Shown here piece by piece: positions 17,854 to 57,408 of a DNA stretch of 64,000 nt (position 1 is its first letter; each line of letters starts with the position of its first letter). Source of the DNA: an uncultured virus (IMG/VR IMGVR_UViG_2585428076_000002) (lineage: Duplodnaviria > Heunggongvirae > Uroviricota > Caudoviricetes); the IMG/VR virus record IMGVR_UViG_2585428076_000002; one strand, written 5' to 3'. Under the pieces are notes generated by a model. That model did not search any database. It saw only the letters and a list, made by a program, of their open reading frames with translations, and had not been told where the DNA came from. The position numbers and the translations under genes are program-made.

Positions 17854-18126
17854 TTGAACAGAATGAATGACTGCATCAAAGCTGAAATGGAATACCGCGA
17901 ATGGCGTGAATGCCCGCTTTGGTATTGCGTGAAGACGCTGCTCAGAGCGGACGGCAAGATGGAAAGCGAGATTGTTTCCGACGAGAAAACCAAAATCCCC
18001 ATCGCCATTCAGAGCCTTGAGAAACCGCAGGATGGCGTGTTTGAGGACGCGAGCGGCACGACATATTACACCTACCATCAGGGATATGAGGCGGCAGCGA
18101 AGCAGGTAGCCGCCGCGAGCATATAG
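17854..18126 (+). CDS. Hypothetical protein; stop codon lies within the att site B arm
   Basis: ~90 aa ORF after the promoter and AAGGAGG RBS. Confidence 0.7.
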   Translation: MNRMNDCIKAEMEYREWRECPLWYCVKTLLRADGKMESEIVSDEKTKIPIAIQSLEKPQDGVFEDASGTTYYTYHQGYEAAAKQVAAASI

Positions 18127-18163
18127 GCAAATGCGGCAGACCTTTTCAGTCATTTGCAACTCC
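18121..18163. other. att-like site B (right end of invertible segment), core TC at 18146-18147; contains an orphan ATG with RBS on the - strand
   Basis: 31/43 ungapped identity to site C (57366-57408); - strand reads AGGAG-ttgcaa-ATG ACT GA. Confidence 0.75.
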
Positions 18164-18378
18164 TACTCCACCACCGCCTCCCGGCGGCTTTTTCTTTGCC
18201 TGAAATCGTATTGGCACAGGAATAACTTGTCTCCGAGGGATGTTTCGCGGTAATATACTCCGCTTTCGTACCACTCGCGCAGTATTCTTTCGCCCTCCCT
18301 CATTTCAGGCATACCGGACTTCGCCTGCTGTGCAAGCTCCGTCGCAACCGCGAGTAGAACAGAGGTGGCGGCGGTCAT
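18163..18378 (-). CDS. Small hypothetical protein downstream of cro (candidate recombination directionality factor)
   Basis: 71 aa, ATGA overlap with cro; function inferred from position only. Confidence 0.6.
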   Translation of the reverse strand: MTAATSVLLAVATELAQQAKSGMPEMREGERILREWYESGVYYRETSLGDKLFLCQYDFRQRKSRREAVVE

Positions 18379-18581
18379 TCTTCTTGCTCAGCGTCGTCGG
18401 CCAAAAGCTCCTCGATGGTGCAGCCGTACAGCTTTGCAAGAATGGGCAGCTTGTCCGCTCGCGGCTTAGCAAGACCGCGCTCCCACTTGCTTACAGCGGA
18501 TTCCTGCACACCGACGATCTTTGCGACCTCTCGCTGTGTGGGAATCGCCCCGCGAAGTCTACGCTCTCTCATAACATTCAT
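18375..18581 (-). CDS. Cro-like XRE HTH regulator
   Basis: TQREVAKIVGVQESAVSKWERG...LAKLYGCTIEELL; divergent from the repressor. Confidence 0.85.
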   Translation of the reverse strand: MNVMRERRLRGAIPTQREVAKIVGVQESAVSKWERGLAKPRADKLPILAKLYGCTIEELLADDAEQEE

Positions 18582-18632
18582 TGTTCCACCTCCTTTAGTG
18601 TCCTGCGGGTCGCTTTCTTTACTTACAGTCTT

Positions 18633-18661
18633 ATTATAGCACTTCATTTCCTCAATGTCAA
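18633..18661 (-). promoter_or_regulatory. Lytic (cro) promoter
   Basis: Perfect TTGACA-17bp-TATAAT with extended -10 on the - strand. Confidence 0.85.
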
Positions 18662-18697
18662 CTCCCATTCTTGAATTTTTCCCGAAAAAATCCTGCA

Positions 18698-18726
18698 TTG
18701 ACAACTTGAATTAAAAGACATATAAT
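18698..18726 (+). promoter_or_regulatory. Repressor/integrase operon promoter
   Basis: Perfect TTGACA-17bp-TATAAT; cttgaatt direct repeat at 18670 and 18706 may be an operator. Confidence 0.85.
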
Positions 18727-18752
18727 AGACTTACAGTAAAGGAGGTAGACCT

Positions 18753-19163
18753 ATGGACGGGTTCGGAGAACGACTTAGACGGTTGAGAAAAGACTGCGAC
18801 ATCACACAGAGCCAGTTGGCAGAAGTCATCGGCGTTGTGCCGTCCGCAATCGGGAAATACGAGCGCATACCGCAGGCGTTCCCGAGCGTGGAGGCGTTGA
18901 TAAAGATAGCCGACTACTTCAATGTGAGCATCGACTATCTGCTGAGAGGGACGCAAACCGTCCCTGCCGTTGAGAACAATATCAGCGGCCAGCTAACAAA
19001 CAGCCCATTCATCCAAGCCAACCACGGAGGCGTGGTGATTAACGGAGAGCAATCCATTTCGCCGGAGGCGATGGAGCTGCTGCATATCTACGAACAGCTG
19101 AGCGGCAGGGAGCGGTTAAAACTGCTTAACTTTGCCGTCGAGTTAGAGGAGGGTACAAAATGA
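18753..19163 (+). CDS. CI-like XRE repressor
   Basis: FGERLRRLRK..ITQSQLAE..IGKYE..IADYFNVSIDYLL. Confidence 0.85.
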   Translation: MDGFGERLRRLRKDCDITQSQLAEVIGVVPSAIGKYERIPQAFPSVEALIKIADYFNVSIDYLLRGTQTVPAVENNISGQLTNSPFIQANHGGVVINGEQSISPEAMELLHIYEQLSGRERLKLLNFAVELEEGTK

Positions 19164-19594
19164 AAGTATCACTGGACATTAAAAAGAAGTGCGCATTCTT
19201 CTGGCTGCGGGCAATCCGCTCCGCACGTATCGACAAATGCTGTGCGAAATGCTTTATTGGCGACGCCTTTCACGAGATATTCGAGGGGACGCGCTACAAA
19301 GACAAGGCTCATGTGGAGCTGGACATTGAACCGGACGCAAGGGTAAAAGCCTACTATCTCTGCGGGCTGAGCAACGGCTTTAAGTATGACGAGAATACGC
19401 ACGTGGCTTTCGTTCCGTGCGAGGGACAGAATATTGAGATTGAAAATGACCGGATTCGGCTGGTGATTACGGATGCTCGCCAGATTGACTTCCAAAGCTA
19501 CCAGCCCCACCCAGAGGGCGAATTTACCGAGGAGCAGCGCACCTGCCGTAACTGGATCTTCGCCAACTACCTGTTAGACGGGATGCCGCTGTGA
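19160..19594 (+). CDS. Hypothetical protein, paralog 2 of the three-member family
   Basis: Same motifs as 5101-5559; overlaps both the repressor and integrase genes. Confidence 0.8.
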   Translation: MKVSLDIKKKCAFFWLRAIRSARIDKCCAKCFIGDAFHEIFEGTRYKDKAHVELDIEPDARVKAYYLCGLSNGFKYDENTHVAFVPCEGQNIEIENDRIRLVITDARQIDFQSYQPHPEGEFTEEQRTCRNWIFANYLLDGMPL

Positions 19595-20994
19595 GACGGG
19601 CAGCCCTCTATATCCGCGTTTCCACGCTGGAACAGGCACAAGAGGGCTACTCCGTAGGAGAGCAACGGGAGCGCCTGATTGCGTACTGCAAGGCGCAGGA
19701 TTGGCTCATAGCGGACATATATGTGGATGGGGGCTACACAGGCAGCAACCTGAACCGCCCCGGCATCCAAAAGCTGATGAGCGAGACAGAGAAGTTCGAT
19801 GTGGTGCTGGTCTACAAGTTGGACCGGCTCTCCCGCTCGCAGCGGGACACACTGTATCTCATCGAGGAGATATTCAGGCCGAACAAGGTGGATTTCGTCT
19901 CCATGCAGGAGAGCTTCGATACCTCGTCCCCGTTCGGCAAAGCCATGATAGGTCTGCTTGCGGTATTCGCCCAGCTGGAACGTGAGCAGATAAAGGAGCG
20001 CACGTGGATGGGGCGAGTGGCTCGTGCCAAAACCGGGCTTCACCACGGAGGCGGGAACATCCCTATCGGGTATGACTACGAGGACGGCAAGCTCATCGTA
20101 AACCCATACGAGGCAGAACAGGTTCGGAAGATATATGAGTGGTATCTTTCCGGTTCGTCACTGAAAGCAATAACCGATAAATTGCAGGACGCGGGGTACA
20201 CGAACAAGTACAGCAGCTACAATTCGTGGTCGAGCGTGAGAAACATCTTGGAGAATGAAACCTATATCGGGCGTCTGCACTTCGGAGATGTCGTTGTGGA
20301 TCACGCGCATGAAGCGATAATAACGGAGGAACAATTCAATGCCGCACAGATATTGCGTGGAAAGCGCAGAGAGCAGTTCGGGAGCCACGCTTTCCAATCC
20401 AAGCACGTGCTGACCGGACTTCTGTTCTGCGGACACTGCGGAGGCCGGTACTACCTGCGCAACACGGGGAAATACTCTTATTATGCCTGCTACTCCCGAA
20501 CAAAGCAGATGAAGAACATGATAAAGGACCCGAACTGCCAGAATAAGATATGGCGGGCGCAGGACTTGGAGCCTATCATTGAGGAAAAGATACTGGCGCT
20601 GCTGCGCAATCCAAAGATTGCAGAGGAGCTTGCCGCCGGCAAGCCGAAAGCCGCAGCCCCGGTAAGCAAGAACACTGATATTGAGCGCCGCATCCGTGAG
20701 ATAGACCGTCAGATCGGAAAGCTGATGGAGCTTTATCAGCAGGATGATATACCGCCCGAGCTGCTCGGTGAGAAGATAAACCGGCTGTACGGCGAGAAAA
20801 CCGCATTGGAAAACTCCATCGCCCCGGTCGAGGAAACCAATGCTATGCCGCTCGATTTAGTGGCCGAGCTTATAACCAACGCTGCGGAAATATGGGACTT
20901 CGCCGATGAGAACCAGAAACGGCGCATCCTGCAAAGCCTCATATCCCGAATTGTCCTGACCGACGACCAAGTTGATATTGAGTGGGCGTTTTAG
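19591..20994 (+). CDS. Large serine recombinase (integrase)
   Basis: YIRVST catalytic Ser, DRLSR, recombinase domain, LLFCGHCG..YYAC zinc ribbon, coiled coil. Confidence 0.95.
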   Translation: MRRAALYIRVSTLEQAQEGYSVGEQRERLIAYCKAQDWLIADIYVDGGYTGSNLNRPGIQKLMSETEKFDVVLVYKLDRLSRSQRDTLYLIEEIFRPNKVDFVSMQESFDTSSPFGKAMIGLLAVFAQLEREQIKERTWMGRVARAKTGLHHGGGNIPIGYDYEDGKLIVNPYEAEQVRKIYEWYLSGSSLKAITDKLQDAGYTNKYSSYNSWSSVRNILENETYIGRLHFGDVVVDHAHEAIITEEQFNAAQILRGKRREQFGSHAFQSKHVLTGLLFCGHCGGRYYLRNTGKYSYYACYSRTKQMKNMIKDPNCQNKIWRAQDLEPIIEEKILALLRNPKIAEELAAGKPKAAAPVSKNTDIERRIREIDRQIGKLMELYQQDDIPPELLGEKINRLYGEKTALENSIAPVEETNAMPLDLVAELITNAAEIWDFADENQKRRILQSLISRIVLTDDQVDIEWAF

Positions 20995-21002
20995 CGCAAA
21001 AG

Positions 21003-21048
21003 AAAAAGCCCTCCCGCGCAGGAATAATCCTGCACGGGAGGGCTTTTT
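21003..21048. terminator. Bidirectional terminator between integrase and holin
   Basis: aaaaagccctcccg / cgggagggcttttt long hairpin between convergent stop codons. Confidence 0.85.
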
Positions 21049-21051
21049 GGC

Positions 21052-21540
21052 TCACTTAGTTTCGGTGCTCAGCTGAGATACCGCGATGGTAGCGGCGGTG
21101 GCAGCCGCAGTGCTGGCAGCCACTTCGGTGGCTCCGCTGGTGGAAGACGGGAGCGCAATCTTCTGGCGGCGCACCTCGGCTTCAATTTTAGTCGTCAGGT
21201 ACTCGGTGAGGTCGCCATACAGAGCCTCGATAAACGCCTGAGCAGCGGGGCTGATGGACGCCAGACAAGCGGTTAGCGCCTTTCGCGCTGCCTCTTTCTG
21301 GGCCTCCAAGTCAAACTTACCGGCCTGCTTCAAAGCGTCAACGTAGGTCTGGCTGGTGGCTGCTACGGCAGCGGAAACCGCATCAGCGATTTCCGTGATG
21401 TAGCCCTGCGCCTTGACATCATCCGTCTCGGCGGCCACATTTGCGGCAACCCGCTTGATGTAGGTGATGGCGAATGCGGTCAGCACAGGAACCGCAGCCG
21501 TGATTACGGCAATCAACAGGTCAGACAAAAGTTCGTTCAT
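21052..21540 (-). CDS. Holin-like protein
   Basis: N-terminal TM helix; AV.ATSQTYVD.LK..G.F...IEAEV pattern; follows the endolysin. Confidence 0.7.
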   Translation of the reverse strand: MNELLSDLLIAVITAAVPVLTAFAITYIKRVAANVAAETDDVKAQGYITEIADAVSAAVAATSQTYVDALKQAGKFDLEAQKEAARKALTACLASISPAAQAFIEALYGDLTEYLTTKIEAEVRRQKIALPSSTSGATEVAASTAAATAATIAVSQLSTETK

Positions 21541-21556
21541 GGTGATAACCTCCTAA

Positions 21557-23083
21557 TTACATTTTTTCGCAGTGGTCGAGGGAGATCCAGCCTGCACCGG
21601 ATTTCAGCTTGCCCCACTTCGAGGCTCCCGTGCCGGTGGCCTCCTGCACGATGGTGTAGACGCCCGGCTTGATTACACCTTTCTTGGCGTTGTTCGTGCC
21701 GGGGCCGCTGCGGATATTCAGGTCGGTGATTTTCACACGAACCATATAGTTGACCGCAGCAGAGCCGCCGGCCACCGAGACAGCGCTTGCGTCCACCCAT
21801 CCGTAGACGTTGCTTGTGCCGTTGGTGTGGATGACGTGATACGGATGCTTGGCGTTAGCGGACACAGCTGTGATTTTGGCGGGACCAGCCTTTGCAGCGG
21901 AGCCGCTGGCGGCGTTTGCACTGGTGTAGTGCTTACCGCCCGCAAAATTCACAACCGTGCCTACGCTCAGCCCAGAAGCAGGGGCGCTCGGCGTCGAGGG
22001 CTGTACAGTGGAGCCTCCAAGCTGCGCTGTTACCTTGCTGGCGAGGTCTCCCATACGGGCGAACATCCAGTTTCCGGGGCAGCTTTTGTTGGCGAACCAT
22101 CTGTGGACGGTCAAGACCATCTCATCCGACTTCGGAGAGTAGTTGAGCGTCTTGTTCTTGTCGCCCAGCCAAAGCAGCTTCTTCTTGCCGTTGCGCTTGC
22201 AGATGTCCACGCAGAGCGCGATGAGCTTCTGGTACACTACGTCCTTAAAAGCGTAAGGCTCAGTGGTGTCAGACGCGCACTCGATGGTTACGGCCCGCTG
22301 GTCGTTGGCGTTGGAAGAAGTACACCAAGAACGGTTGCCCTCGTCCACGCACAGAAGCACCCGCCCGTCCGGGCCGATGCCATAATTGCAGGACGCCTGA
22401 CGGGATGTGGGGGCAAAGATATTGCCCAGCGTCTCAACAGAGCACTGGCCCACCACACAATGCGGAGTGATGCGGTCAATGGCGTGGGTGCGCTTACCCG
22501 AATGGTTCGGGCTGAGTTTTGTGTAGTTTACAAGTGGGCTGTTTCCCATAAGATTTCCTCCATTTCCGGGCTTTGCTGCTGCGGCATACCTGTCAAAGTA
22601 GGTCTGCCCATAGCCGGCCCTTTTCACCTTTACCGCCTCGCTCTGGTCTGCGGGGCGCTCAAAATTGAGAAGAACGCTGTCGCTGGCAGCCCGCACGGTG
22701 GTGGCGGTTTTCAGCGTGGACAGAACCTGCTTGTAGCTGCCTGACAGCTCTTGAAAAAGAAAATCGAGCTGCATTTCCAAGTCCCCGATGGACTTTCCTG
22801 CGGCTCGTGCGAAGTCAAGCATATTCTGTTTTCTGCTCCAAAACGTCCACTGCGCGAGGCCATATCCGGCGCTGTCACGGACAAAGTTCTGATACGAGCC
22901 GCTATCCACAGCGGCGGTATAGCTGTCATCCGTAAAGCCCAGCTTCTTCTCGTAGGTGTTTTGCAGGTTCTTCGGGGAAAGCCCGCTCTCTGCGAACAGG
23001 TTTCCCATCAACCCTGCGGCGCCGGCTTTGCTCAGCCCTTTCCCGATGAGGTAGTTCCAGATCCTCTCCTCATTCGTGCTCAT
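21557..23083 (-). CDS. Endolysin: tail-lysozyme-like domain + N-acetylmuramoyl-L-alanine amidase + SH3-like domain
   Basis: GLMGNLFAES..YGLAQWT; ITPHC..ASCNYGIG..TIEC..HRWFANKSCPG; LNIRSGPG..GWISL. Confidence 0.85.
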   Translation of the reverse strand: MSTNEERIWNYLIGKGLSKAGAAGLMGNLFAESGLSPKNLQNTYEKKLGFTDDSYTAAVDSGSYQNFVRDSAGYGLAQWTFWSRKQNMLDFARAAGKSIGDLEMQLDFLFQELSGSYKQVLSTLKTATTVRAASDSVLLNFERPADQSEAVKVKRAGYGQTYFDRYAAAAKPGNGGNLMGNSPLVNYTKLSPNHSGKRTHAIDRITPHCVVGQCSVETLGNIFAPTSRQASCNYGIGPDGRVLLCVDEGNRSWCTSSNANDQRAVTIECASDTTEPYAFKDVVYQKLIALCVDICKRNGKKKLLWLGDKNKTLNYSPKSDEMVLTVHRWFANKSCPGNWMFARMGDLASKVTAQLGGSTVQPSTPSAPASGLSVGTVVNFAGGKHYTSANAASGSAAKAGPAKITAVSANAKHPYHVIHTNGTSNVYGWVDASAVSVAGGSAAVNYMVRVKITDLNIRSGPGTNNAKKGVIKPGVYTIVQEATGTGASKWGKLKSGAGWISLDHCEKM

Positions 23084-23095
23084 GCTTTACTCCTT

Positions 23096-23455
23096 TCAAC
23101 CGGTCCCGGAGTTTGTGTGTTCGTCAGAGGGCCTGTCCCTGTCCGGCCACCGGTTATTTTTACTCAGGTTTTCGACAGCGGATTTTATACAGTAGGCAAG
23201 CACCACACCGATAATCTCCGTAACTGCCACTTGGGACAGGCTCTCGGCAATCTGCATCTTATCGAGGTAGGCAAGGATATAGCTGCACCATACCCACGCA
23301 AACCCGTTTATCAGGCAGACCCAGATTACCTTTTTGGTAGTCTCCGCTTTCTGCTTCTTCGTCTTGCGGCTCTTTCCGCTGCTCAAGCGAATCAGCAAGA
23401 GAGAGCCTAAGACGCCGAGGAAAACGGATGCTACCGCAGTAAGAACAATTACCAC
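23096..23455 (-). CDS. Membrane protein (lysis cassette)
   Basis: Three hydrophobic segments. Confidence 0.65.
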   Translation of the reverse strand: MVIVLTAVASVFLGVLGSLLLIRLSSGKSRKTKKQKAETTKKVIWVCLINGFAWVWCSYILAYLDKMQIAESLSQVAVTEIIGVVLAYCIKSAVENLSKNNRWPDRDRPSDEHTNSGTG

Positions 23456-23471
23456 GGCATTCCTCCTCCTT

Positions 23472-23855: not shown

Positions 23856-23874
23856 TTCAATCCCTCCTCTGAGA

Positions 23875-24728: not shown

Positions 24729-25164
24729 TGATAGTACCTCCCTCACTAATTGTGCTGATGATAGCGTCAATTTCGCATACAGCGTCCTCAACGGCGCTGA
24801 TACGCACGTCGTTCGCGTCGTCCTGCTCGCACAGGGCGTCTTCGATTTCGCCCATCCGTGCGCCGGCAAGCTCGTCGTACTCGCACAGGGCGTCTTCCAA
24901 TGCGGCAGTGCTCTCCACAAGCTGCTGGGCGACGGGGCCGGTCTTATCGGTAAACCGGTAGTGCCGGTCAATCTCGTACCAGTCGTAGCAGTTTCCCTCG
25001 CCGTCCTCCAAGCTGTCCAGCTTGCGGACTACGCGGAAACAGTCTGTCACGGTCTGGTCGGGATAGCTCCGCTCGATCTGGTGAAACCCGGTCAAGTCGG
25101 AATGCTCACTGCCCTTTGTCTTGAGGACTTCGATGTCTTCCTGCGTTCCAAATACATACTCCAC
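24709..25164 (-). CDS. Hypothetical protein with EDALCE heptad-like repeats
   Basis: 151 aa; AGGAGG RBS lies inside the RT 3' end. Confidence 0.7.
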   Translation of the reverse strand: MEYVFGTQEDIEVLKTKGSEHSDLTGFHQIERSYPDQTVTDCFRVVRKLDSLEDGEGNCYDWYEIDRHYRFTDKTGPVAQQLVESTAALEDALCEYDELAGARMGEIEDALCEQDDANDVRISAVEDAVCEIDAIISTISEGGTINEQNLG

Positions 25165-26288
25165 GTCAGTTCCTCCTTTCGCTGCTTTTGACGGATGATT
25201 CTTTTCAGGTCACGCACAAGGCGTTCGCCTTTATACAGAAGCCGGTAAAGGTTGTAGTTATTGCAGTGTTTCAGCTGTCCGAGCCTTGAAATCAGGCTCG
25301 CAGCCGCTCCTGCCATGATGCGCTTGCCCTGTCTCTTTCTCTTGCGGTATCGGGCAATCGCCCGTTTGATGCGCAGGAGATTGTGCTTGCGCGGAATTGT
25401 GAAGCCTCGACCGTACCGATACCCTACGGCGTTTGGCAGACGGCTCTTTTGCCTCGCAAATCCGCGCCTCGGTGGTTCCAGCGGCGTCTTCGGGTTTACG
25501 CGGGCAATCGGAAATATCTGCCAGTCGCCTTTCAGCTCAAGCTGGTGCTCCGTCAGCCATTTCTCAACGAGAAGCCGGAGCTTTTTCAGCTTTCGCTTAT
25601 TCGGGCCGAACACCGTGAGGTTGTCCATGTACCGGACATAGTGGGCGCACAGCCCGCTATTACGGATCATCTGGTCCAGCGGCTGCAAAACGGTGTTTGC
25701 GAACCACTGCGAGGTATAGGAGCCGATACGGACGCCATCTTTCACAATGCGCCAAATCAGGTCGAGGACATGCCGGTCTTTAATCAGGCGGCGCATACGG
25801 TCCATTACGACCTCCGGTTTCAGGCTGTCATAGAAATGGCGCACATCGCCGCACAGCTCGTACCGAGTGCCTTTCAGGTCGTGATTCATCCAGCTTTCGA
25901 TTGCCGCCCGTGCTTGGTGCGGGCCTCTGTCCCTAATACTGCCGCAGCAGTAATGGTCCATGCCCCGCATGAAGATTGGCTGCAAAATCTGGATAAGCGC
26001 GTGATGGACATACTGGTCGGGCCACTGCGCGGGTTCGCTCACCGTTCTCCACTTCTGGGCGCTTGCGTCCCATCTGCGGGTCGTGTGAGGCGGTTTCTGT
26101 TCAAAGCCGTCGATGATAATTTGCCGCAGCTCCTTGATGCGCTCCTCTTTGGTCTCCTCCACCCAAGCAGTGCATTTATTCGGGCGGTGGTGGGTGCGCC
26201 AATGATGTGTGCGGTTTACTTCGTCGATGGCTCTTGATAAATTCTCATCTGAGATTAAAGGTTCAAATAGGTTCTTTGCTCTTTTCAC
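25092..26288 (-). CDS. DGR reverse transcriptase
   Basis: IGSYTSQWFAN (DGR-type IGxxxSQ), DVRHFYDS, YVRYMDN; GTG start after AGGAGG; adjacent TR/VR pair. Confidence 0.92.
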   Translation of the reverse strand: MKRAKNLFEPLISDENLSRAIDEVNRTHHWRTHHRPNKCTAWVEETKEERIKELRQIIIDGFEQKPPHTTRRWDASAQKWRTVSEPAQWPDQYVHHALIQILQPIFMRGMDHYCCGSIRDRGPHQARAAIESWMNHDLKGTRYELCGDVRHFYDSLKPEVVMDRMRRLIKDRHVLDLIWRIVKDGVRIGSYTSQWFANTVLQPLDQMIRNSGLCAHYVRYMDNLTVFGPNKRKLKKLRLLVEKWLTEHQLELKGDWQIFPIARVNPKTPLEPPRRGFARQKSRLPNAVGYRYGRGFTIPRKHNLLRIKRAIARYRKRKRQGKRIMAGAAASLISRLGQLKHCNNYNLYRLLYKGERLVRDLKRIIRQKQRKEELTWSMYLERRKTSKSSRQRAVSIPT

Positions 26289-26440
26289 AGGGACTGGTAT
26301 CCTCCTTTTAGCTGTACGAGCTTTCCAACGCCTCTTTCGAGGTGTACTAACCCGCTCCCTGAACTGCTTATCTTCACCGAGAGGTGCGCGACTACCTGTG
26401 CCGTGGTTTGGAGGTTTGTCAGCAAGACACATAAAAGGGT

Positions 26441-26577
26441 GCGGCAGCCGATGTTCGTGTTCGAGTTCGACACGCTGTTGTAGTTGACGTAGAACAAACC
26501 GTGGTTGGTGTTGCGGTTATAGTTGCCACCAACGTAGAGGCACGGGTTCGACGAGTTGAAGTTCCAGTTATCGCACG
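26441..26577 (-). repeat. DGR template repeat (TR), 137 bp
   Basis: AAC-rich; differs from VR at 17 positions, every one an A in TR on the coding strand. Confidence 0.97.
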
Positions 26578-26626
26578 TCACGCCGAACAGTTGACATCGG
26601 TACTGCACAGGTAGCCCCGGATGGTC

Positions 26627-26672
26627 CCCGCGCTCCGCGCGGGTCCCTTGTGAGGGGGCTTCGCCCCCTCAC
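26627..26672 (-). other. Two tandem GC-rich hairpins with GGA and GAA triloops downstream of VR (retrohoming signal)
   Basis: cccgcgc-tcc-gcgcggg (26627-26643) and gtgagggggc-ttc-gccccctcac (26650-26672). Confidence 0.8.
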
Positions 26673-26681
26673 GCTCCCCCA

Positions 26682-28538
26682 TTAAGGGAGTTCTTGGAGG
26701 CGGCAGCCGATGCTCGAGTGCGAGTACGACACGCCGTTGCAGTAGACGCAGAACAAACCGCGGTTGGTGTTGCGGCTATAGTAGCCACCAACGAAGAGGC
26801 ACGGGTACGACGAGCCGAAGTACCAGTAATCGCACGAGTACGTGGAATCACTGCCGCTTGCAGCAGTCGGATAGAACATCGGGAACCCGCCAGCCGTAGC
26901 GACATTGAATGCGGACGGATAACCGCTCGACGGCGTACCGACGCTCGTGCCGCCGCTGCTGTCGCTGAAATTGTTGGGATTCAGGATGAGATTCAGCCCG
27001 TTGCCGTTATAGTAACAGCCGTCCATCCAATCCAGCACGTTATCCCACAGGCCCTCTATGTTGCGGTACTGCACACCCACGCCGTAGGTCGTGCGGGAGG
27101 TCTGCATCGTGCCGGTGTGGTAAGGCATACTGTCAGACGCTCCCATATTCTGCACATCGCTGTTGTTGCCGCAGCCGTAGCCGATTTTCGCCTGAGAATT
27201 CCAGTCAGCAAACTCCACGATGTAGAGCAGCCAGATGGTGAACCGCATGGCGAAGTCCATCTGCCAGAAGTTCGCACCGAGGCCGTGAATGCCGGACCTT
27301 GCCGCGCTTCGGGTGATGTTGTTCTTCGGCGACACACCGGTCTTGCTCTTGTAGTCGCTGGCGCAGTGATACCTGCCGATGTAAACAACGTCCCGCTCGC
27401 CACGGCCGTCGCCCCTGTTCATGTGGGCGGGGGAAACCGAGAAGCCAGCGGTCGCTTGGTCTGCGATCTGGATTTTGATGCTGCTGCCGCTCTTGGTGAG
27501 CTTGTACCAGAACTTCGGGATAGCGACCATCGAGTTACCGGAGCGCGTGGTCTTTGTCATTCCTGCCCACGGCTGCAAATTGTCAAACGGCGAGCTGTAA
27601 CTGCCCGCGCCGGCCACATAAGGAACTGGGTCAATAAAGCCGGCGGCTTTATCGGTTCTCGTCCATTTTGTGGTACTCGTGCCGTCCCAGCTTGCGCCGT
27701 AGATATTTACGAAGTTCACCTCGACCCTGCAAGTTTTATCCGTAGGGGCCGTGTGGTTTGTGCCGGCGGCTACCTTTACCGTGATGGTAGCCACACCGGA
27801 GCTTTTTCCTGTGACCGTGATTTTGTTTCCGCTGACGCTGACTTGGGCAATCCCGGAGCTGCCGGAAACGGCAGAAATCGCGCCATCGCCCGCACGGGTT
27901 ACGGTGATTGTCCCGGTCTTCGTTGTGTTGTTCAGCGTCATATTGGTCGGGTTAAGGCTGAGGGAGCCTGCCGCCTTTCCAATCGTCCAGTTCACCGTCT
28001 TCGCGGTCGTAGTCCCGTCTGCCCACTTGTAGTTAGACCCCGGCGTGAAGATTGCGCCGTAGGTTCCCGCATTGGTAGCGGAGTTCGTGCCGCTGATGGA
28101 CATTTTGCCGGTGTCGTAGTCTGTCCATGTAGGAGACTGCGGAGAGCCTGTGTAGGTCAGGCTGCCGTTCGGCGTGGGCGTTGCGATGGACGCTCGGTTG
28201 ATAGTCCACTGAACGGTCTTAGCAGTCTCCGTATCGTCAGACCACTTAAGCCCGGACTTCGGCGTGAACGTCGCCTCATAAGTACCGGCATTCGTGGCCT
28301 GCGTTGTGCCGCCGAGGGTGAGCTTGCTTTCATCGTAATTCAGCCATGTAGGGGACTGCTGGCGGCCCGTAAAGGTCAGCGTCCCGCTTGGGGACGGAAC
28401 GACGTTGATTGTGTTCGTGAGGTCTGTGATGGCCTCAGATGCGGATTCCGCAAGTTCTTTTGCGTCCTGCGCAAGCGCCCTGACCGTTTCCAGCTCAGAC
28501 GCGCTCACGCCGAGGATATTTACAGATCCATACGCCAT
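26682..28538 (-). CDS. DGR target: tail fibre/adhesin with Ig-like repeats and C-terminal C-type-lectin-like variable domain
   Basis: Two ~70 aa repeats (LT.TG..QSPTW...ATNAGTY...WTI); IEGLWDNV.DW and terminal GCRL motif; follows baseplate genes. Confidence 0.9.
   Translation of the reverse strand: MAYGSVNILGVSASELETVRALAQDAKELAESASEAITDLTNTINVVPSPSGTLTFTGRQQSPTWLNYDESKLTLGGTTQATNAGTYEATFTPKSGLKWSDDTETAKTVQWTINRASIATPTPNGSLTYTGSPQSPTWTDYDTGKMSISGTNSATNAGTYGAIFTPGSNYKWADGTTTAKTVNWTIGKAAGSLSLNPTNMTLNNTTKTGTITVTRAGDGAISAVSGSSGIAQVSVSGNKITVTGKSSGVATITVKVAAGTNHTAPTDKTCRVEVNFVNIYGASWDGTSTTKWTRTDKAAGFIDPVPYVAGAGSYSSPFDNLQPWAGMTKTTRSGNSMVAIPKFWYKLTKSGSSIKIQIADQATAGFSVSPAHMNRGDGRGERDVVYIGRYHCASDYKSKTGVSPKNNITRSAARSGIHGLGANFWQMDFAMRFTIWLLYIVEFADWNSQAKIGYGCGNNSDVQNMGASDSMPYHTGTMQTSRTTYGVGVQYRNIEGLWDNVLDWMDGCYYNGNGLNLILNPNNFSDSSGGTSVGTPSSGYPSAFNVATAGGFPMFYPTAASGSDSTYSCDYWYFGSSYPCLFVGGYYSRNTNRGLFCVYCNGVSYSHSSIGCRLQELP
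26700..26836 (-). repeat. DGR variable repeat (VR)
   Basis: Ungapped 137-bp match to TR at the 3' end of the target gene. Confidence 0.97.
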
Positions 28539-28555
28539 GAGTGTTTCCTCCTCTT

Positions 28556-29365: not shown

Positions 29366-29367
29366 TC

Positions 29368-31681: not shown

Positions 31682-31690
31682 ACTGCCTCC

Positions 31691-32323: not shown

Positions 32324-32338
32324 TCCGCAGCTCCTTTC

Positions 32339-37386: not shown

Positions 37387-37680
37387 CTGAAACATTGGCG
37401 TTTTATACATTACGCGCGCATAGGCGCGTTAGGGAGACGGAGATATACATTACTCTCTATTCTCCCTATTTACACACTCTATTAAGAATGAATGTTTCAA
37501 TGTTTCAAATACCTGCAAAAGCCAGTAACGGTGCGGGTTTGAGACGAAACATTGGCGATACATTGGCCGAAACATTGAAACATTCGGGGCTGAAACATCT
37601 GGTTGAATTTCCCGCCTAAACTTAGACTTTCGCGCCTAATACTTGAATTCGGGCGGGATGTTTCAACTCAATGTTTCAGC
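37387..37680 (-). repeat. Iteron-rich non-coding element copy 2
   Basis: Reverse-complement homolog of 15214-15541 with identical blocks of 23, 24 and 33 bp. Confidence 0.85.
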
Positions 37681-43660: not shown

Positions 43661-43678
43661 TTCAAATTCCTCCTTGTG

Positions 43679-44404: not shown

Positions 44405-44439
44405 ACGGTTTTCCTCCTTTCCTCAGAGTTTAGGGCATC

Positions 44440-46557: not shown

Positions 46558-46565
46558 TTCACACC

Positions 46566-51214: not shown

Positions 51215-51240
51215 GTTTCGTCCTCCTTGTAACTGAGCAT

Positions 51241-51275
51241 AAAAAAAGGGAGCTGCACACACTCGTACAGCTCCC
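51241..51275 (-). terminator. Intrinsic terminator after metK
   Basis: gggagctg / cagctccc stem with a T7 tail on the - strand. Confidence 0.7.
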
Positions 51276-51295
51276 ATGTTTTACTGTATTAGGTT

Positions 51296-52090: not shown

Positions 52091-52094
52091 GGTA

Positions 52095-52931
52095 TCAATT
52101 CCTTTGCTTGATTTTTTCGTTGCCGTTCAGCGGAGGCCCAAGCAGGTCACAGTCCGCGTCAGGCGGGTCCTGAACGTAGCCGTAGTGGTTTGCGTAACAA
52201 TAGGCGCAACCGTTGCGGCAGGTGCTGTATGCGCCAATATCGACGCTCTCAACGCACTGGCACAGCCCGCGCTGATTGCGGTCTTTCGGTTTGTCAACGC
52301 CGAACATCTTGCCGTCTACGCAGCTGGAATGGGGCAGCCCCAGTTCCTCCGCACAGGAGGAGAGGACAATCCCGTGCTGGGCGGCTATCTCGGATAGCTG
52401 CTGCGCCAGCTCTGTCTGCTGCTCTGTTGTGAGCGGCTGGATATTCAGCGGTCTGAGGTCTACCGTGCGGTACGAATCCACGAAACTCATAACGGCCTTT
52501 GAGGTGTAGCCCTCCAATTCCTCCGCGATTTTCGTGAACGCCCGAATGTGGTAGTCCCAAGTGTAGCGGTCATTCAGGAATACCGGGTCATATCGCCAGA
52601 TGGCTTTATCAGCCCCGATTCTCTTGAACGCCGGTATCACGACCTCATGCTTGTCGGGGATGTTCTTCTCAACGTCCCGACCATAGGGTGTGATGGTGTA
52701 CTGGAAATAATATTTGAATGCGTCCAGCTCGTGAATCCTGTTGAGCATAGGCGCGGCATTCTTAGTCCAAAAAACGAACCCGTCTACTTTGTCGGGCGTG
52801 AGTGAAACACGCCCGACTTGTAGAGGGTTGTATGGGTTTCTAAGGAGGACAAATCCTTTCCCAACACGGTTGTAAAACCACTCGGAAAACAGTGCCGGGA
52901 TGTCAGTCCGCCTGCTTGCGCTAACGATCAT
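52095..52931 (-). CDS. DUF1848-family (radical SAM-related) protein
   Basis: MIVSASRRTDIPA, FWTKN, WRYDP, C.C..S.DIG.Y.TC..GC.YCYAN. Confidence 0.85.
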   Translation of the reverse strand: MIVSASRRTDIPALFSEWFYNRVGKGFVLLRNPYNPLQVGRVSLTPDKVDGFVFWTKNAAPMLNRIHELDAFKYYFQYTITPYGRDVEKNIPDKHEVVIPAFKRIGADKAIWRYDPVFLNDRYTWDYHIRAFTKIAEELEGYTSKAVMSFVDSYRTVDLRPLNIQPLTTEQQTELAQQLSEIAAQHGIVLSSCAEELGLPHSSCVDGKMFGVDKPKDRNQRGLCQCVESVDIGAYSTCRNGCAYCYANHYGYVQDPPDADCDLLGPPLNGNEKIKQRN

Positions 52932-53398
52932 AACGGCATCCCATCCTTTAGGTAGTTTGCGAATATCCAGTTGCGGCAGGACCGCTGCTCTTTGGTGTAG
53001 TTCCCCGGAGGGTTCGGCACGTAATCCCAGAAGTGGATGCGGCGGGCATTCGTGATGTGCAGCTTGATTCTGTCGTTCTCAACTCTGACTTCGGAATTGC
53101 TGTCAGGCACGAATGCCACATGGGTGTTCAGCTCCCACACAAAGCCGTCGCTCAAACCGCAAAGGTAGTATGCTTTGGCGTGTGGGTGCTGCTTGACGAT
53201 GATGTCAACGACGGCGTTGGACTTGTGCAGCGTTCCGTAATAGACGCGGTTGTCCTTGTCGCCGATGAAACATTTTGCGCAGCACTGCGATATATCCACG
53301 TTGCGGATGTCTCGGAGCCAGAAGAAGTTGCACTTCTTCAAAATCTCCAAGTGCAAGTGCATGGGCGCGTGCTTAATTATAAAATCCGACGGTATCAT
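52928..53398 (-). CDS. Hypothetical protein, paralog 3 of the three-member family
   Basis: Same motifs as 5101-5559 and 19160-19594. Confidence 0.8.
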   Translation of the reverse strand: MIPSDFIIKHAPMHLHLEILKKCNFFWLRDIRNVDISQCCAKCFIGDKDNRVYYGTLHKSNAVVDIIVKQHPHAKAYYLCGLSDGFVWELNTHVAFVPDSNSEVRVENDRIKLHITNARRIHFWDYVPNPPGNYTKEQRSCRNWIFANYLKDGMPL

Positions 53399-53422
53399 TT
53401 TATCACTCTCCTATATGACGGG

Positions 53423-53830
53423 TCAATGACAGCTTTGTGACACGACGGCCACCTCCGCTATCTCGGGGTTTTGCGCCTGAAAAAACTCCCCAAGCGCGTA
53501 AAGTATCGTCTCACAAGCCCCCGGCAGAGCAGGGTGGAATGCAAAGCCACACCCGGACATCGCGCTCTTGACCGCGACAAACTCACGGTCAAAGCCGCTC
53601 ACACGGGTTCTGGTGGCTTTCATTCTGCGCCCGTGGTCATCAAAGCTCTCAAACAGGGCGTGGGAGAGCGGGTTGCCCGCGCTCACTGATTCGCCCACCG
53701 TCAGCTTTGCGAGGGTGATTTCATAGCCGCCCGGAATCGAACCGGTCAGTGTGAACGATGAGACGTTCGTTACATAACTCGGCAGCGGATTCAGCCCGTC
53801 GTAGGGCTGCGGCTCAAAGTTTTTAATCAT
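53423..53830 (-). CDS. Hypothetical protein
   Basis: 135 aa, AAGGAGG RBS. Confidence 0.65.
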   Translation of the reverse strand: MIKNFEPQPYDGLNPLPSYVTNVSSFTLTGSIPGGYEITLAKLTVGESVSAGNPLSHALFESFDDHGRRMKATRTRVSGFDREFVAVKSAMSGCGFAFHPALPGACETILYALGEFFQAQNPEIAEVAVVSQSCH

Positions 53831-54104
53831 TTTGTTCTACCTCCTTATCTTTCAACTGCTCACGCAGATGTTCACGCAATTCCTGACGGACCATCGCGGC
53901 CTCAACGTCATTGTGCGTAGCGTTCTCAACAAGTACCTGCCAACTGCCGTCGCTCGTCTTGAATGTGTGAACTTTCCGCTTTGCGCGGAGAGCACTCACC
54001 AGATCCACCGTGTATTTCAGAACACAGCAGACCAAAATCAAAAAGCCAAGCCAAGCCAAATCCACGGGCTGGAAAAGATAAACTTCAAAAACTCCATTAC
54101 TCAT
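53823..54104 (-). CDS. Hypothetical membrane protein
   Basis: N-terminal hydrophobic helix. Confidence 0.6.
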   Translation of the reverse strand: MSNGVFEVYLFQPVDLAWLGFLILVCCVLKYTVDLVSALRAKRKVHTFKTSDGSWQVLVENATHNDVEAAMVRQELREHLREQLKDKEVEQND

Positions 54105-54384
54105 CTTCCTCCAATTTCAGCCGAGCTTCAAGCTCGGTGATGCTCTGCAAAAACGCCATGCGGCAGGACAGCTCGCTTTCCTCGACCGCCACGCGCAGAC
54201 TTTTCAGAGCCTCCGCTACCGGCGTGTCAAAACTGTACTTCTGGAAGACCACGCCTCTCCGGTCCTCTGTGGTAAAAATCTCAAACGCATCACCCTCTCG
54301 AATGCCGAGGCTCCTGCGAACTTCGCGCGGGATGACAACCCTGCCGAGGTCGTCAATTCTGCGGATTATACCTGTTGCTTTCAT
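54097..54384 (-). CDS. AbrB/SpoVT-family DNA-binding protein
   Basis: MKATGIIRRIDDLGRVVIPREVRRSLGIREGD. Confidence 0.9.
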   Translation of the reverse strand: MKATGIIRRIDDLGRVVIPREVRRSLGIREGDAFEIFTTEDRRGVVFQKYSFDTPVAEALKSLRVAVEESELSCRMAFLQSITELEARLKLEEDE

Positions 54385-54400
54385 CGCACTGTTCCTCCTG

Positions 54401-55102
54401 TCATAATTCGTATTCTTTGTGGTGGGCAGTCTTGCCCTTATATTTGACCGAGGGCTTGACCCAAACCACCTTGCCGGACTTGTACCGGCGCAGGTGGCCT
54501 CGGACGTTGACCTCGTGGTCGGGTTTGGTGTAGCCGCGCTTCGCCTGTTCGGGCTTTACCAGTGCCGTGCTGTCGAAGTCAGTCACGGTGTAAATGCGGC
54601 GAATGAGCGGCTGCCGCACCTGCGCTGTGCGCTTTTTCTTCTTGTGCTTGGCAGGGCGGCGCTCAATGCGCTGCTCAACTTTGACCTCCTCCCGGTAGTA
54701 AGCCATGAACAGCATGAGCGCATGGTACTTCCGGGCCTCTTTCCTGCACGTGTCATCCATCGAGAGGAGAACACTGAGCAGTTCCTGATCCACAACCGGC
54801 TGACTGCCCATCGGGGCGATACGGCGGTTCCTGATTTCCGTAGTGGCAGGGTCATAGTCAAACATCACAACCGGCGGGAGGTTCGGCTTCACGGTGATGT
54901 AGACCGCCATCTCCACCCAGCTGCCCTTGCTCTCGAACGTGAATTCGATTTGCTCCTCGCAAAGCTCCACCACACCCGATTCCATCGGAGCCAGAAACTT
55001 CTCGCGGTCGAGCCATTTGAAGTTGTCAAAATACCAATCCAGCACCCGCTCCATGCGAGCGTTGCTCGTGACGATAATGCGGTCAGCTGTGTTGCGGTTC
55101 AT
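54401..55102 (-). CDS. Hypothetical protein
   Basis: 233 aa; C-terminal VRGHLRRYKSGKVVWVKP motif seen in phage early proteins. Confidence 0.7.
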   Translation of the reverse strand: MNRNTADRIIVTSNARMERVLDWYFDNFKWLDREKFLAPMESGVVELCEEQIEFTFESKGSWVEMAVYITVKPNLPPVVMFDYDPATTEIRNRRIAPMGSQPVVDQELLSVLLSMDDTCRKEARKYHALMLFMAYYREEVKVEQRIERRPAKHKKKKRTAQVRQPLIRRIYTVTDFDSTALVKPEQAKRGYTKPDHEVNVRGHLRRYKSGKVVWVKPSVKYKGKTAHHKEYEL

Positions 55103-55104
55103 CG

Positions 55105-55281
55105 TCAGCCCTCCTTTCCCTCGAACTGCCTGTGGTAGAAATCTGATAGAATGCTTTTTGCTGCGAGAATTCCCTGCTTGTAGCCCTCCTCGTACTTGAA
55201 ATTACCGCTCCGACCATACGGGTTGTTCTCGGCTTTCCGGGTGAGCAGGTCTTGCAGCATTTCGTATTGCCACTTAGTCAT
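55105..55281 (-). CDS. Small hypothetical protein
   Basis: GAGGAGG RBS, operon packing. Confidence 0.55.
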   Translation of the reverse strand: MTKWQYEMLQDLLTRKAENNPYGRSGNFKYEEGYKQGILAAKSILSDFYHRQFEGKEG

Positions 55282-55912
55282 GCCATACCTCCTCAACGAA
55301 AGCGCCGTTCTTATCGACCCACACATTCCTGCCGCCGAGCTTCGCAATCCGGCAGTCCTTACTGCGCATCTCCTCAGCTTTTTCTGCGGCGGGGTCGTGC
55401 CACTGCAATCCGCGACTTTTGTAGAGCGGAATCCAATGCTCGCTGTAAAAATCGTACCCTGCGCCGTCGATGCCGAAGAAATAGCCCCACTCCTCGTGCT
55501 GGTAAATGCGGAACCCGCAGTCGGACATCACCCGAATACCATCCGCATACCCAAGCCAGTAGTCGTCGCAGGAATCGCCAAAGCTCCACATCGTTCCCCA
55601 CATTGGGAGCGTGTCTTCGTCCACGACTTCCAAATTGTCAGGCTCCACGAGAATGGACGGGCCGCCGTCCAGATCCACCCGATACTTGTTGAGGTCTGCG
55701 GCATACGCCACGATTTCGCCGAGGTGTTCCAGCGTGTCGCAGCTGTCAGGCAGGTCAAAAACGTGAACTCTGCTGCCGGCGTGAGGGAGGGTGAGTTCCT
55801 CCCACTCGTCGGGAGCCGCCCGCATGAGCCGCTCAATCATGCTCTGCGGGATAGCGTTGAACTCGCTGACCCACTTGTGGGCGGCATCGCTAATCGTCAT
55901 GCCTTTAATCAT
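55274..55912 (-). CDS. Hypothetical protein
   Basis: 212 aa; FGIDGAGYDFY..HWIPLY motif. Confidence 0.7.
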   Translation of the reverse strand: MIKGMTISDAAHKWVSEFNAIPQSMIERLMRAAPDEWEELTLPHAGSRVHVFDLPDSCDTLEHLGEIVAYAADLNKYRVDLDGGPSILVEPDNLEVVDEDTLPMWGTMWSFGDSCDDYWLGYADGIRVMSDCGFRIYQHEEWGYFFGIDGAGYDFYSEHWIPLYKSRGLQWHDPAAEKAEEMRSKDCRIAKLGGRNVWVDKNGAFVEEVWHD

Positions 55913-56138
55913 TCTTCTGCACCTCCTCGTAACAGGCCGGACAATATATCAAATCACTGCCCTGCATCATCTTCATGTACTCTTTTCGCCCATGCCGGTC
56001 TATGAAACACTTGGAGCAAAATGTGTCTCCGCATTTTTCGCAGCCCCACATCTCGCCGTGAACGAGATCGCTGGCGTCCCATTCCATCTCAAACCCGCAT
56101 AGGTCGCAGGTGTAGGTATCCTTTATGCAGTTATACAT
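55905..56138 (-). CDS. Small zinc-finger protein
   Basis: Four CxxC pairs. Confidence 0.7.
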   Translation of the reverse strand: MYNCIKDTYTCDLCGFEMEWDASDLVHGEMWGCEKCGDTFCSKCFIDRHGRKEYMKMMQGSDLIYCPACYEEVQKND

Positions 56139-56139
56139 A

Positions 56140-56511
56140 TCACCCGAACCTCCTCATTCGCATTTTGGAAAGGGCCTCACCGAGTTCCGGCCAGCTACAC
56201 CAGCAGTTGTAGCCGCCCGTCCAGTCTTTGTCATGCGCCATTGTGCGGTACAAAACGTGGTGATACCACTCGGACGAGCAGAACCGCACATCGCTGATGG
56301 CAACGTATACGAACTCGCCGGTTGTCTCGTCCCGCAGCACTGCCGAGAACTCATAATGTCCGGGGATGAATCTGTGCAGCGCAAACCCCGCCGCCTTTGC
56401 CTGTTTCCGCAGGTCCGCTCTTGCCTCCCGCTGGAAAGCGTCGTAGTCGCTCCCGGTTTCACAACCGAAAGAAAATGTGTGGTGCAGCCACTTACCCATT
56501 CTGTTCGCCAT
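56140..56511 (-). CDS. Hypothetical protein
   Basis: HYEFS...YVAISDVR...LYRT...KDWTGG.N motif; GGAGG RBS. Confidence 0.65.
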   Translation of the reverse strand: MANRMGKWLHHTFSFGCETGSDYDAFQREARADLRKQAKAAGFALHRFIPGHYEFSAVLRDETTGEFVYVAISDVRFCSSEWYHHVLYRTMAHDKDWTGGYNCWCSWPELGEALSKMRMRRFG

Positions 56512-56670
56512 TTTGGTCCACCTCCGCACCCGAATTTAACTTGACCGACCGGAGTATCAGCAGCAAGTCGTCTCGGGTTATGTTTTTCTCCACCAGCAAG
56601 GCGGTGAATTTGTCCATATCTTCCGTAGTTCCAATAGGGATGAATCTCCTGAAAATTACGTCGCTCATTT

Positions 56671-57309
56671 TTAATCGTCAACCTCCAATCTCATGGACCA
56701 CCGAGCGGCTTTCTCTCTGATAAACCGCTCAACTTCTTCACGGTCAAGCCCCAGCGCTGCCGCACAAAGAACAACGTCGGCGAACTCCTCGTTCAGCCTG
56801 TGCGACGCCTCGCTTGTGCTCACTGGCGTGGGGTTGCTCTTGTCTATCGTCCTGCGCAGTTTCAGCGCCGCTTGGGACAGCTCCGCTGCCTCCTCTGCCA
56901 TGCCTGCCAACAACTCGCAGCAGCCAAGCAGGGTGTGAATTTCTGTGAGTTCATGCCCCCAATCTTCAAGAGCCTTTTCGATAGAGCTGCCAAACGCAAG
57001 CTGCTCAGGAATCACATCAACCCTGATGTCGCCCAGAAATGTGTCATCGCAGCAATCTCCGGGTTCGACGGGGTAGAAGTCTGTCAGCATGATCTTTCGT
57101 TTCAGGTCTCTCGACGGGATAAAGCAATTTTGAACCGACGGCACAGTGCCATACCCGGTATCGGCGGGCCAGCCGACAGAGAAGTCTCTGCCGCTCTGCC
57201 GAAGAACATAACAAAGCTCGTTCAGCGAGAGAGGATTGCTCTTTGCAATCAACGGGTACTGGCTGATTTCGTTGCTGAACCACGCTTTGAATTCCGTGAT
57301 GTCTTTCAT
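56671..57309 (-). CDS. Protein with C-terminal MazG-like NTP pyrophosphatase domain
   Basis: AEEAAELSQAALK...EEFADV motif; AAGGAG RBS. Confidence 0.65.
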   Translation of the reverse strand: MKDITEFKAWFSNEISQYPLIAKSNPLSLNELCYVLRQSGRDFSVGWPADTGYGTVPSVQNCFIPSRDLKRKIMLTDFYPVEPGDCCDDTFLGDIRVDVIPEQLAFGSSIEKALEDWGHELTEIHTLLGCCELLAGMAEEAAELSQAALKLRRTIDKSNPTPVSTSEASHRLNEEFADVVLCAAALGLDREEVERFIREKAARWSMRLEVDD

Positions 57310-57335
57310 AAGTACCAACTCCTTTGCAAAATAGA

Positions 57336-57363
57336 AGAAACCCGCCATTTCTGGCGGGTTTCT
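57336..57363 (-). terminator. Terminator hairpin just inside the prophage A right end
   Basis: agaaacccgcca / tggcgggtttct. Confidence 0.7.
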
Positions 57364-57365
57364 GT

Positions 57366-57408
57366 ATATAGGCAAATTCGGCTATCCATCAATTTCATGT
57401 GCAATTCC
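57366..57408. other. att-like site C (prophage A/immA junction), core AA at 57391-57392
   Basis: 31/43 ungapped identity to site B; predicted core falls in the Ile codon of immA HEI. Confidence 0.75.

Follow-up and report, generated by a model that had tools for sequence, protein, structure and literature searches.

The DNA analysed here is a 64,000-nucleotide stretch of an uncultured tailed virus of the Caudoviricetes (IMG/VR record IMGVR_UViG_2585428076_000002; "the window" below means this whole stretch). It holds most of a temperate phage that is integrated as a prophage in a gut bacterium, the inserted element being about 57.6 kb long, and that carries two inverted att-type sites with a GA core, A and B, on either side of its replication module. 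The two sites are conserved among relatives, and junctions of both module orientations are present in natural DNA. The phage itself sits in an immA gene at a site with another core, AA on the plus strand, and the only recombinase gene we find in the window encodes a large serine integrase. We think it probable that this one enzyme, with or without a partner protein, uses the AA/TT pair for integration and the GA pair A/B for inversion, and thereby sets the orientation of the module in a manner coupled to integration. We infer from the arrangement of the sites that the integrase catalyzes both reactions, that a directionality factor is needed in one direction, that re-inversion accompanies excision, and that inversion acts as an on/off control. 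The main features are as follows.

6250-6301, plus strand: site A, with a phage-type left arm (6250-6274), the core GA (6275-6276) and a right arm (6277-6301)
6277-18145, no strand: invertible segment of 11.9 kb, between the cores of sites A and B
18121-18172, plus strand: site B, with a phage-type left arm (18121-18145), the core TC (18146-18147) and a bacterial-type right arm
19591-20994, plus strand: large serine integrase of 467 amino acids (aa), matching PF00239 (2.7e-38, residues 4-149), PF07508 (1.8e-17) and PF13408 (1.6e-13)
57366-57412, plus strand: site C, the attR of the prophage, with a phage arm (57366-57390), the core AA (57391-57392) and then the immA arm
57382-57696, minus strand: truncated N-terminal part of the immA gene of the surrounding prophage, 104 residues ending ...WGIAHEIDG*, cut inside the HEIGH codons

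Sites A and B and the two orientations of the replication module

The TC core of site B is GA when read on the minus strand, and A and B are inverted sites that share this core and bracket the replication module. The left arm of site A is in a gap of about 70 bp between the divergent o53 and hydrolase genes, and its right arm is in the 5' end of the hydrolase gene. By Pfam the segment encodes a lipoprotein cell-wall hydrolase, a DUF2800 nuclease, a single-stranded DNA-binding protein, a family A DNA polymerase, a VapE primase-helicase, VRR-NUC, an SNF2 helicase and a sigma/RinA-like regulator, and it also contains a promoter (17788-17816) and a 90-aa open reading frame (ORF). A first-pass annotation of the window had aligned site B with the prophage boundary site C without gaps at 31 of 43 nucleotides, with both arms conserved and the cores different, and this observation is confirmed: B (18121-18163) and C (57366-57408) are direct repeats on the plus strand that agree at 31/43 positions (19/25 in the left arms and 12/16 in the right arms), and their cores are TC and AA. 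The right arm of B thus matches the immA arm at 12 of 16 positions, and it resembles bacterial arms. This likeness is not a matter of chance, since a search of the whole genome (3.27 Mb, both strands, up to 14 substitutions) gives just B, C and a third site described below, with no other B/C-like sites. Sites A and B agree at 16/25 positions in their left arms and at 4/16 in their right arms, and so are not near-identical crossover sites. When a matrix built solely from relatives' att arms was applied to 30 shuffled sequences the maximum score was 17.7; two true att arms score 41.9 and 39.0 (the latter being the phage arm of site C), and the left arm of B scores 26.0, above all 30 shuffles.

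Both sites are retained by related phages. Site A is present in 22 of 24 relatives collected around the hydrolase gene, always with the core GA (22/22), and site B in 25 of 37 collected around the integrase gene, always with the core TC (25/25). In ungapped comparisons the mean column identity of the A left arm is 0.89 versus 0.49 in its flank, and that of B is 0.83 in the left arm, 1.00 in the core and 0.52 in the flanks. The arms persist even where neighbouring genes differ, and relatives with the sites occur in metagenome-assembled genomes (MAGs) labelled Oscillospiraceae, Schwartzia and Anaerovibrio.

Searches for the B left arm plus core found nine viral contigs, eight in the window state and one flipped (G170; L196/L200). 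This 9,702-nt contig is 96% identical to window positions 8544-18157 and carries, in order, PolA, VapE, VRR-NUC, SNF2, the sigma-like regulator and o90. After o90 come the B left arm and TC, joined to the A left arm in reverse complement and the beginning of o53; there its alignment with the window jumps from position 18147 to position 6276, on the other strand. The flipped junction is a site of 25+2+25 bp that is built like an attP. The A left arm plus core occurs 18 times in 17 viral contigs (14 in the window state, three flipped and one in a contig that ends exactly at the core), and the flipped junction accounts for 3 of the 17 informative occurrences, in two phage lineages and two datasets. 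In the second lineage, whose integrase is about 80% identical, contigs G171 and G172 have the flipped junction; both carry an intact attP 9.2-9.6 kb away from it, and all their matched genes are on one strand. The reciprocal arrangement is seen in a further relative (L063, integrase 76% identical), where the integrase, the 144-aa ORF and CI are followed by cro, a small ORF and, directly adjacent, the hydrolase, which begins at an ATG homologous to the ATG in the B arm. Homology of L063 to other phages stops at the B right arm, and a search for relatives of its hydrolase locus returned none but L063 itself. An alternative that we had entertained, that the conserved window orientation is an ancient fixed scar, was dropped, since flipped junctions exist in two lineages.

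The ends of some assembled contigs also fall at the cores. Contig _019996 (38,412 nt) has one end exactly at the B core and the other at the C core, with one shared base beyond. Run X15 has Logan contigs with 30-nt overlaps that begin at the A core and at the B core, and their depth is flat (32-39); this is a weak hint of inversion. Runs X9 and X14 have Logan contigs that pass through A and B without a break, and there is no strand-changing joint among the Logan contig matches listed. Close relatives from genome collections (L083, L084 and L109) are all in the window state, as are 10/10 contigs found in a metagenome scan with the B right arm.

Could short-read assembly have joined the short, similar arms falsely? 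Contig G172 has a visibly mixed path and most flipped contigs come from one large dataset, as such artefacts would predict. The arms, however, share at most about eight consecutive identical bases (read by eye), too few to mislead a k-mer assembler, and the position of the joins is the core, not the bases that the arms share. The junction is found again in another dataset (3300029782) and in the second lineage, whose arm sequences differ, and the reciprocal arrangement of L063 comes from a third dataset. We consider it very improbable that the flipped junctions are artefacts of this kind.

Prophage ends, integration cores and the integrase

The first-pass annotation predicted that the other end of the prophage, left of the window, would carry a phage-type arm, the same core as site C and the rest of immA resuming at G-H. 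Such a junction exists. The third B/C-like site lies at C33:121282-121324 on the minus strand, which corresponds to window positions -202..-160 and puts the left prophage end 185 bp left of the window, and on the plus strand the site consists of a bacterial arm, AA and then an inverted copy of the site C left arm. To its left the minus-strand frame resumes with GHLYLGHQKDEDPEEIEAHFFAAQLLMPE..., the immA remainder starting GHLYLGH. This C-terminal fragment matches Peptidase_M78 (PF06114) at 9.7e-10; the N-terminal fragment alone has no Pfam match. The two fragments meet at HEI | GH, and in G090, which is a genome of the same family, an intact homologue of 207 aa reads WGIAHELGHLYLEH, with HELGH. 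The immA gene thus has an M78 domain, an HEXXH motif and an adjoining gene for a helix-turn-helix (HTH) repressor (57696-58364). Because the immA halves flank the two ends and the intact homologue spans the join, the phage sits inside the HEIGH codons of immA, with the core AA (TT on the immA strand). The only bases that attL and attR have in common at the join are CAA.

The DNA around the insertion is a second prophage. Its right-hand part has the HTH repressor, Rha and a cro-like gene, and 4.4 kb to the left of the insertion it has a tyrosine integrase, which is the nearest integrase outside the inserted phage. This outer prophage, seen at window 57382-64000 and L001 5981-11816, is lower in G+C (0.40-0.43 at 57-59 kb). 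The split of immA, an anti-repressor protease gene, may leave the outer prophage unable to induce, in which case the phage would disable a resident prophage by inserting into it. We also considered whether B and C bound an element of 39 kb in its own right; this was rejected because its left end has no attL-type arm, and it is also excluded by contigs with an intact attP, which join the site C arm to the far left end.

Natural attP sites support this assignment of the ends. Three IMG/VR relatives (L041, L044 and L050) have an intact attP (25+2+25 bp) in which the arms of both prophage ends are joined, flanked by the genes expected when those ends join, and that of L041 uses the site C phage arm. 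The attP spans about 50 bp, its inverted arms resemble each other, it is dissimilar to attB, and identity between attP and attB is limited to the centre. Other relatives have the same phage arm beside quite different flanks, and since one phage arm meets many different flanks we conclude that the integrase family uses many attB sites. The integration core was TT in eight, AA in six and AT in three of 17 relatives' arms, and GA or TC in none of the 17, which bears out the proposal of the first-pass annotation that inversion and integration cores are distinct. Of its two pairs, GA for inversion and TT for integration, the GA pair does mark an inversion, the natural junctions being exact at the cores, and TT is the reading on the immA strand of a core that is AA on the plus strand. 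Recombination by such enzymes requires identical central dinucleotides, which are the sole determinant of orientation according to the A118 work (PMC3556126), and within each pair the dinucleotides match: AA in both attL and attR, and GA in A and, on the opposite strand, in B.

Two further observations concern these cores and targets. Near-identical phages differ in core (AA, TT or the palindromic AT) and in attB (L041 3108-3153, L044 3081-3126, L048 3038 and L054 370); by the A118 study a symmetric AT core should permit both orientations (PMC3556126). In another relative (L047 2900-2950) the attB arm looks like the start of a gene, with a ribosome-binding site and an ATG, much as the right arm of B does. 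This likeness hints at an ancestral target of the family that resembles the cro-operon/hydrolase junction.

The integrase has Resolvase, Recombinase and Zn_ribbon_recom domains, the composition of a large serine recombinase; R9, V10, S11 and T12 are invariant in ten homologues, and the serine nucleophile is present. It is 37-40% identical to the integrases of A118, U153 and phiFC1. As had been noted in the first pass, it is the sole visible recombinase: no other of the 85 window ORFs scanned has a Resolvase domain, and the gene ends 36.4 kb from site C. ORF 21557-23083 encodes an endolysin and not a recombinase. Among GenBank phages the integrase has no relative above 45% identity, and there is therefore no sequenced virion genome to show the packaged orientation. 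The genome's other Resolvase-domain genes include no close paralog of it, and the nearest integrase outside the phage is of the tyrosine type. The 144-aa ORF just upstream of the integrase gene (19160-19594) has a 52%-identical paralog at 5101-5559, in the operon beside site A; both are without a match in Pfam or PHROGs, and the 144-aa ORF is absent from some relatives.

Another recombinase, of the host or of a mobile element, might make a real and reversible inversion, the att likeness of A and B being incidental or serving integrase binding. The genome's 16 Resolvase-domain genes and the weak match of the A left arm to the att-arm matrix leave room for this. Yet the site-bearing viral contigs carry this integrase and no other recombinase among their matched genes, the sites persist across MAGs labelled as quite different hosts, the left arm of B scores far above chance, the flipped junction is a 25+2+25 site like an attP, and the genome has no close paralog of the integrase. 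We regard such a second enzyme as distinctly improbable.

Promoters, gene starts and the proposed switch

The signals that bear on the meaning of the two orientations are these.

48-76, minus strand: fourth strong promoter, 11/12 consensus positions plus TG (L002 560-532), reading through a 52-aa Cys-rich ORF (L002 326-505) into the left att arm
17788-17816, plus strand: promoter inside the segment, 11/12 positions plus TG, reading through the 90-aa ORF o90 (17854-18126) into site B
18174-18195, plus strand: terminator that stops transcription from the 17788-17816 promoter in the window state
18633-18661, minus strand: consensus promoter, 12/12 positions plus an upstream TG, before cro (18375-18581) and the 71-aa ORF (18163-18378), reading towards site B
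18698-18726, plus strand: promoter of the operon of the CI-like repressor (18753-19163), the 144-aa ORF and the integrase, 12/12 positions

By Pfam analysis of the 85 ORFs, the lysis, tail, head and packaging genes are on the minus strand, from 57375 down to 21052. The lysogeny region (18163-20994) has cro and the 71-aa ORF, which is conserved in nine sequences, on the minus strand, and the CI-like HTH protein (18753-19163; HTH_3 at 1.3e-13), the 144-aa ORF and the integrase on the plus strand. The replication module is on the plus strand at about 6299-18126, and a further block of minus-strand genes runs from 6232 down to the left end. Just four promoters in the left 20 kb match the consensus at 11-12 of 12 positions, and three of them face a recombination site; neither the replication module nor the o53 block is preceded by a comparable one. 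Across site B, two consensus promoters converge in the window state. In the second lineage the inner promoter stands directly before site B with no ORF between, and in its flipped contigs it is directly upstream of the o558 operon. The fourth promoter would, after excision, face the genes beyond attP; a terminator-like hairpin, read by eye, lies between them.

Inversion also bears on a gene start. Read on the minus strand, the B right arm consists of GGAG, six bases, ATG and one codon, followed by the core, in frame with the hydrolase. When flipped junctions were constructed virtually, a start codon (ATG or TTG) stood in frame two codons ahead of the core in 15 of 16 phage pairs, with a lipoprotein signal peptide after it. 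Near the core the hydrolase gene of the window lacks an ATG of its own, whereas some relatives at 98% identity possess one there. The terminator at 18174-18195 lies antisense in the 3' end of the 71-aa ORF, and in an alignment read by eye its stem changes are compensatory among relatives, while the encoded tail varies.

These features suggest the following scheme. A large serine integrase would have inserted the phage into immA by way of an AA/TT core. In the window state A and B are hybrid sites, each with a phage-type arm and an arm of another kind, like attR and attL, and the replication module points against the rest of the genome. Recombination of A with B would flip the module and produce an attP-like palindrome of two phage-type arms and an attB-like site. 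The whole genome would then be colinear, the cro promoter would read into the replication genes, the B arm would supply the hydrolase gene with an ATG and a ribosome-binding site, and the inner promoter would read into o53 and the next operon. Recombination of attP with attB needs the integrase only, and the reverse needs a directionality factor, as set out in accounts of these enzymes (PMC5737554, PMC12286644). Because A and B are attR- and attL-like and the flipped sites attP- and attB-like, the integrase alone should give integration together with the window orientation, which fits the dominance of the window state in assemblies. Integrase alone would thus drive and hold the hybrid, disconnected state at the time of integration, integrase with a putative directionality factor would restore the colinear state at the time of excision, and the distinct cores would block crosses between the integration and inversion pairs.

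A more far-reaching version of this scheme, in which the lysis-lysogeny decision is written in DNA topology, we hold only tentatively. Here one integrase would split one long operon at attP and invert the module, and the integrase with a small early protein would reverse both events together at induction, so that the genome is again colinear and all of it connected to promoters. The inversion would part two further operons from the promoters that serve them and deprive one gene of its start codon, the gene for the small early protein would lie next to site B or attL and follow one of the three look-alike promoters, and the difference between GA and the AA, TT or AT cores would let one enzyme run both reactions without scrambling the genome.

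A number of findings weigh against the integrase-driven switch and must be set beside the evidence above. First, the window state predominates: it is the state of 18 of 19 contigs with the B right arm, of 6/6 with the A right arm, of 16/16 loci centred on o141, and of 26 of 37 loci centred on the integrase gene (none flipped, 11 uninformative). For the first lineage, viral scans with the exact B and A right arms gave no reciprocal flipped junction, and G172 mixes the states, with a window-type A junction at one end and a flipped one at the other. Three contigs (_081059, _033494 and _028045) have an intact attP and yet unflipped A and B, which disfavors the strict form of the coupling between integration and inversion proposed in the first-pass annotation; in short-read assemblies linkage over 6-10 kb is unreliable in either direction. 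Second, the right arm of site A is unlike bacterial-type arms (4-5/16), and the score of its left arm, 8.6 (fourth-best in the prophage), does not by itself reach significance, the shuffle maximum being 17.7. Third, the genome has 15 Resolvase-domain genes besides the integrase (16 in total), and no directionality factor was identified, a homologue of A118 gp44 being undetectable in the prophage and its small ORFs having no PHROG match. (The 71-, 90-, 52-, 144- and 152-aa ORFs have no match in Pfam or PHROGs.) Finally, conservation of the ribosome-binding site and ATG in the B arm may reflect integrase binding, because real attB arms share a GG...ATG pattern, and the conserved plus-strand terminator after B shows that the window state is itself a working configuration.

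Several of these points would also be expected if the orientations were fixed strain differences that arose by rare accidental inversions, with no switching or regulation and with unrecognised promoters serving both arrangements. The window state is near-universal in assemblies and has its own conserved terminator, some regulatory regions of the phage clearly depart from the consensus, among them the repeated TGAAACAT element, and the sequencing runs were compared as assembled contigs only. Such an account has more difficulty with the presence of both states in two lineages (about 80% identity between their integrases) and, with near-identical flanks, within a single dataset, with contigs that terminate exactly at the cores, with phage-type arms and a GA core that are kept over deep divergence while integration cores drift, and with an inversion that parts the hydrolase gene from its start codon. 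We therefore judge fixed strain differences unlikely, though the least unlikely of the alternatives to an integrase-driven switch. Overall, the interpretation given in the first pass is partly supported.

Related systems and other features of the phage

Phages Mu, P1 and P7 encode the small invertases Gin and Cin, which act on near-identical inverted crossover sites with the help of an enhancer and flip tail-fibre genes freely in both directions. As in those phages, a phage-encoded serine recombinase would here flip a segment of the phage's own genome. In contrast to Gin and Cin, the enzyme is a 467-aa integrase, the sites would pass from attL/attR-type hybrids to attP/attB-type sites, the segment is a replication module, and the direction should depend on a factor; the sole recombinase of the prophage, at 467 aa, is not a small invertase (about 190 aa with a C-terminal helix-turn-helix). 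Synthetic memory switches have been made from the Bxb1 and phiC31 integrases with their factors, and one integrase has been multiplexed by altering the central dinucleotides. The logic of inverted attP/attB sites around a segment, set by integrase and reset by integrase with its factor, and of orthogonal cores is the same, but those systems are engineered, whereas here a natural phage would apply the design to its own genome. Integrases of the A118, U153, phiFC1 and TP901-1 type have the same domains, an attP palindrome of about 50 bp and an attB within a gene, as here. In A118 attP and attB have 3 bp in common at the centre, as here, and a non-palindromic core sets orientation (PMC3556126). 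A118-type phages are described with one attP, whereas the present family keeps a second, internal pair with its own core and uses many attB sites. In the skin/SPbeta type of excision, too, an interrupted gene is restored at a defined stage by a large serine recombinase acting with a directionality factor, as described in PMC5025042; there the element leaves a host gene, whereas here an inversion within the element would rebuild phage operons and a gene start. Anabaena cyanophages have an invertible region of about 30 kb with true inverted repeats, and two isomers in populations; that report leaves the mechanism open, describes no att-type sites and shows no link to lysogeny, whereas att-type sites are present here (bioRxiv 10.64898/2026.02.14.705889). 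In the full-text library searched, integrase inversion switches were synthetic only and no natural phage with a second internal att pair was described; papers beyond that library may describe one.

If one integrase does serve two pairs of sites told apart by their cores, nature already uses the design of rewritable DNA memory and multiplexed integration, and lysogeny would have a further layer of control in which the lytic replication genes are physically disconnected in the prophage and not only repressed. The family also offers parts, namely the integrase, two attP-type and two attB-type sites, the core variants AA, TT, AT and GA, and many natural attB sites.

Other features of the prophage were noted in passing. 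A MazF/PemK-like toxin gene near the left end of the phage (178-813) and a MazE-like antitoxin gene (54097-54384) are about 54 kb apart on the prophage map and just about 4 kb apart, across attP, in the circular phage; a run of G near window position 250 varies by one or two bases in other samples. A diversity-generating retroelement occupies 25092-28538 on the minus strand, with a reverse transcriptase (25092-26432), an RT-18 RNA (26302-26386, 72.7 bits) and a template repeat (26441-26577). Its variable repeat (26700-26836) is at the 3' end of a tail-region gene that encodes 618 aa, and the 17 differences between the two repeats are all at template adenines. Finally, a repeat of about 240 nt rich in TGAAACAT / ATGTTTCA motifs is present at 15283-15526 and 37401-37623, the copies being 88-92% complementary. 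One copy is in the invertible module before VRR-NUC and the other before the tail genes, both in the same orientation relative to the local direction of the genes, and the repeat may be a regulatory or origin element.

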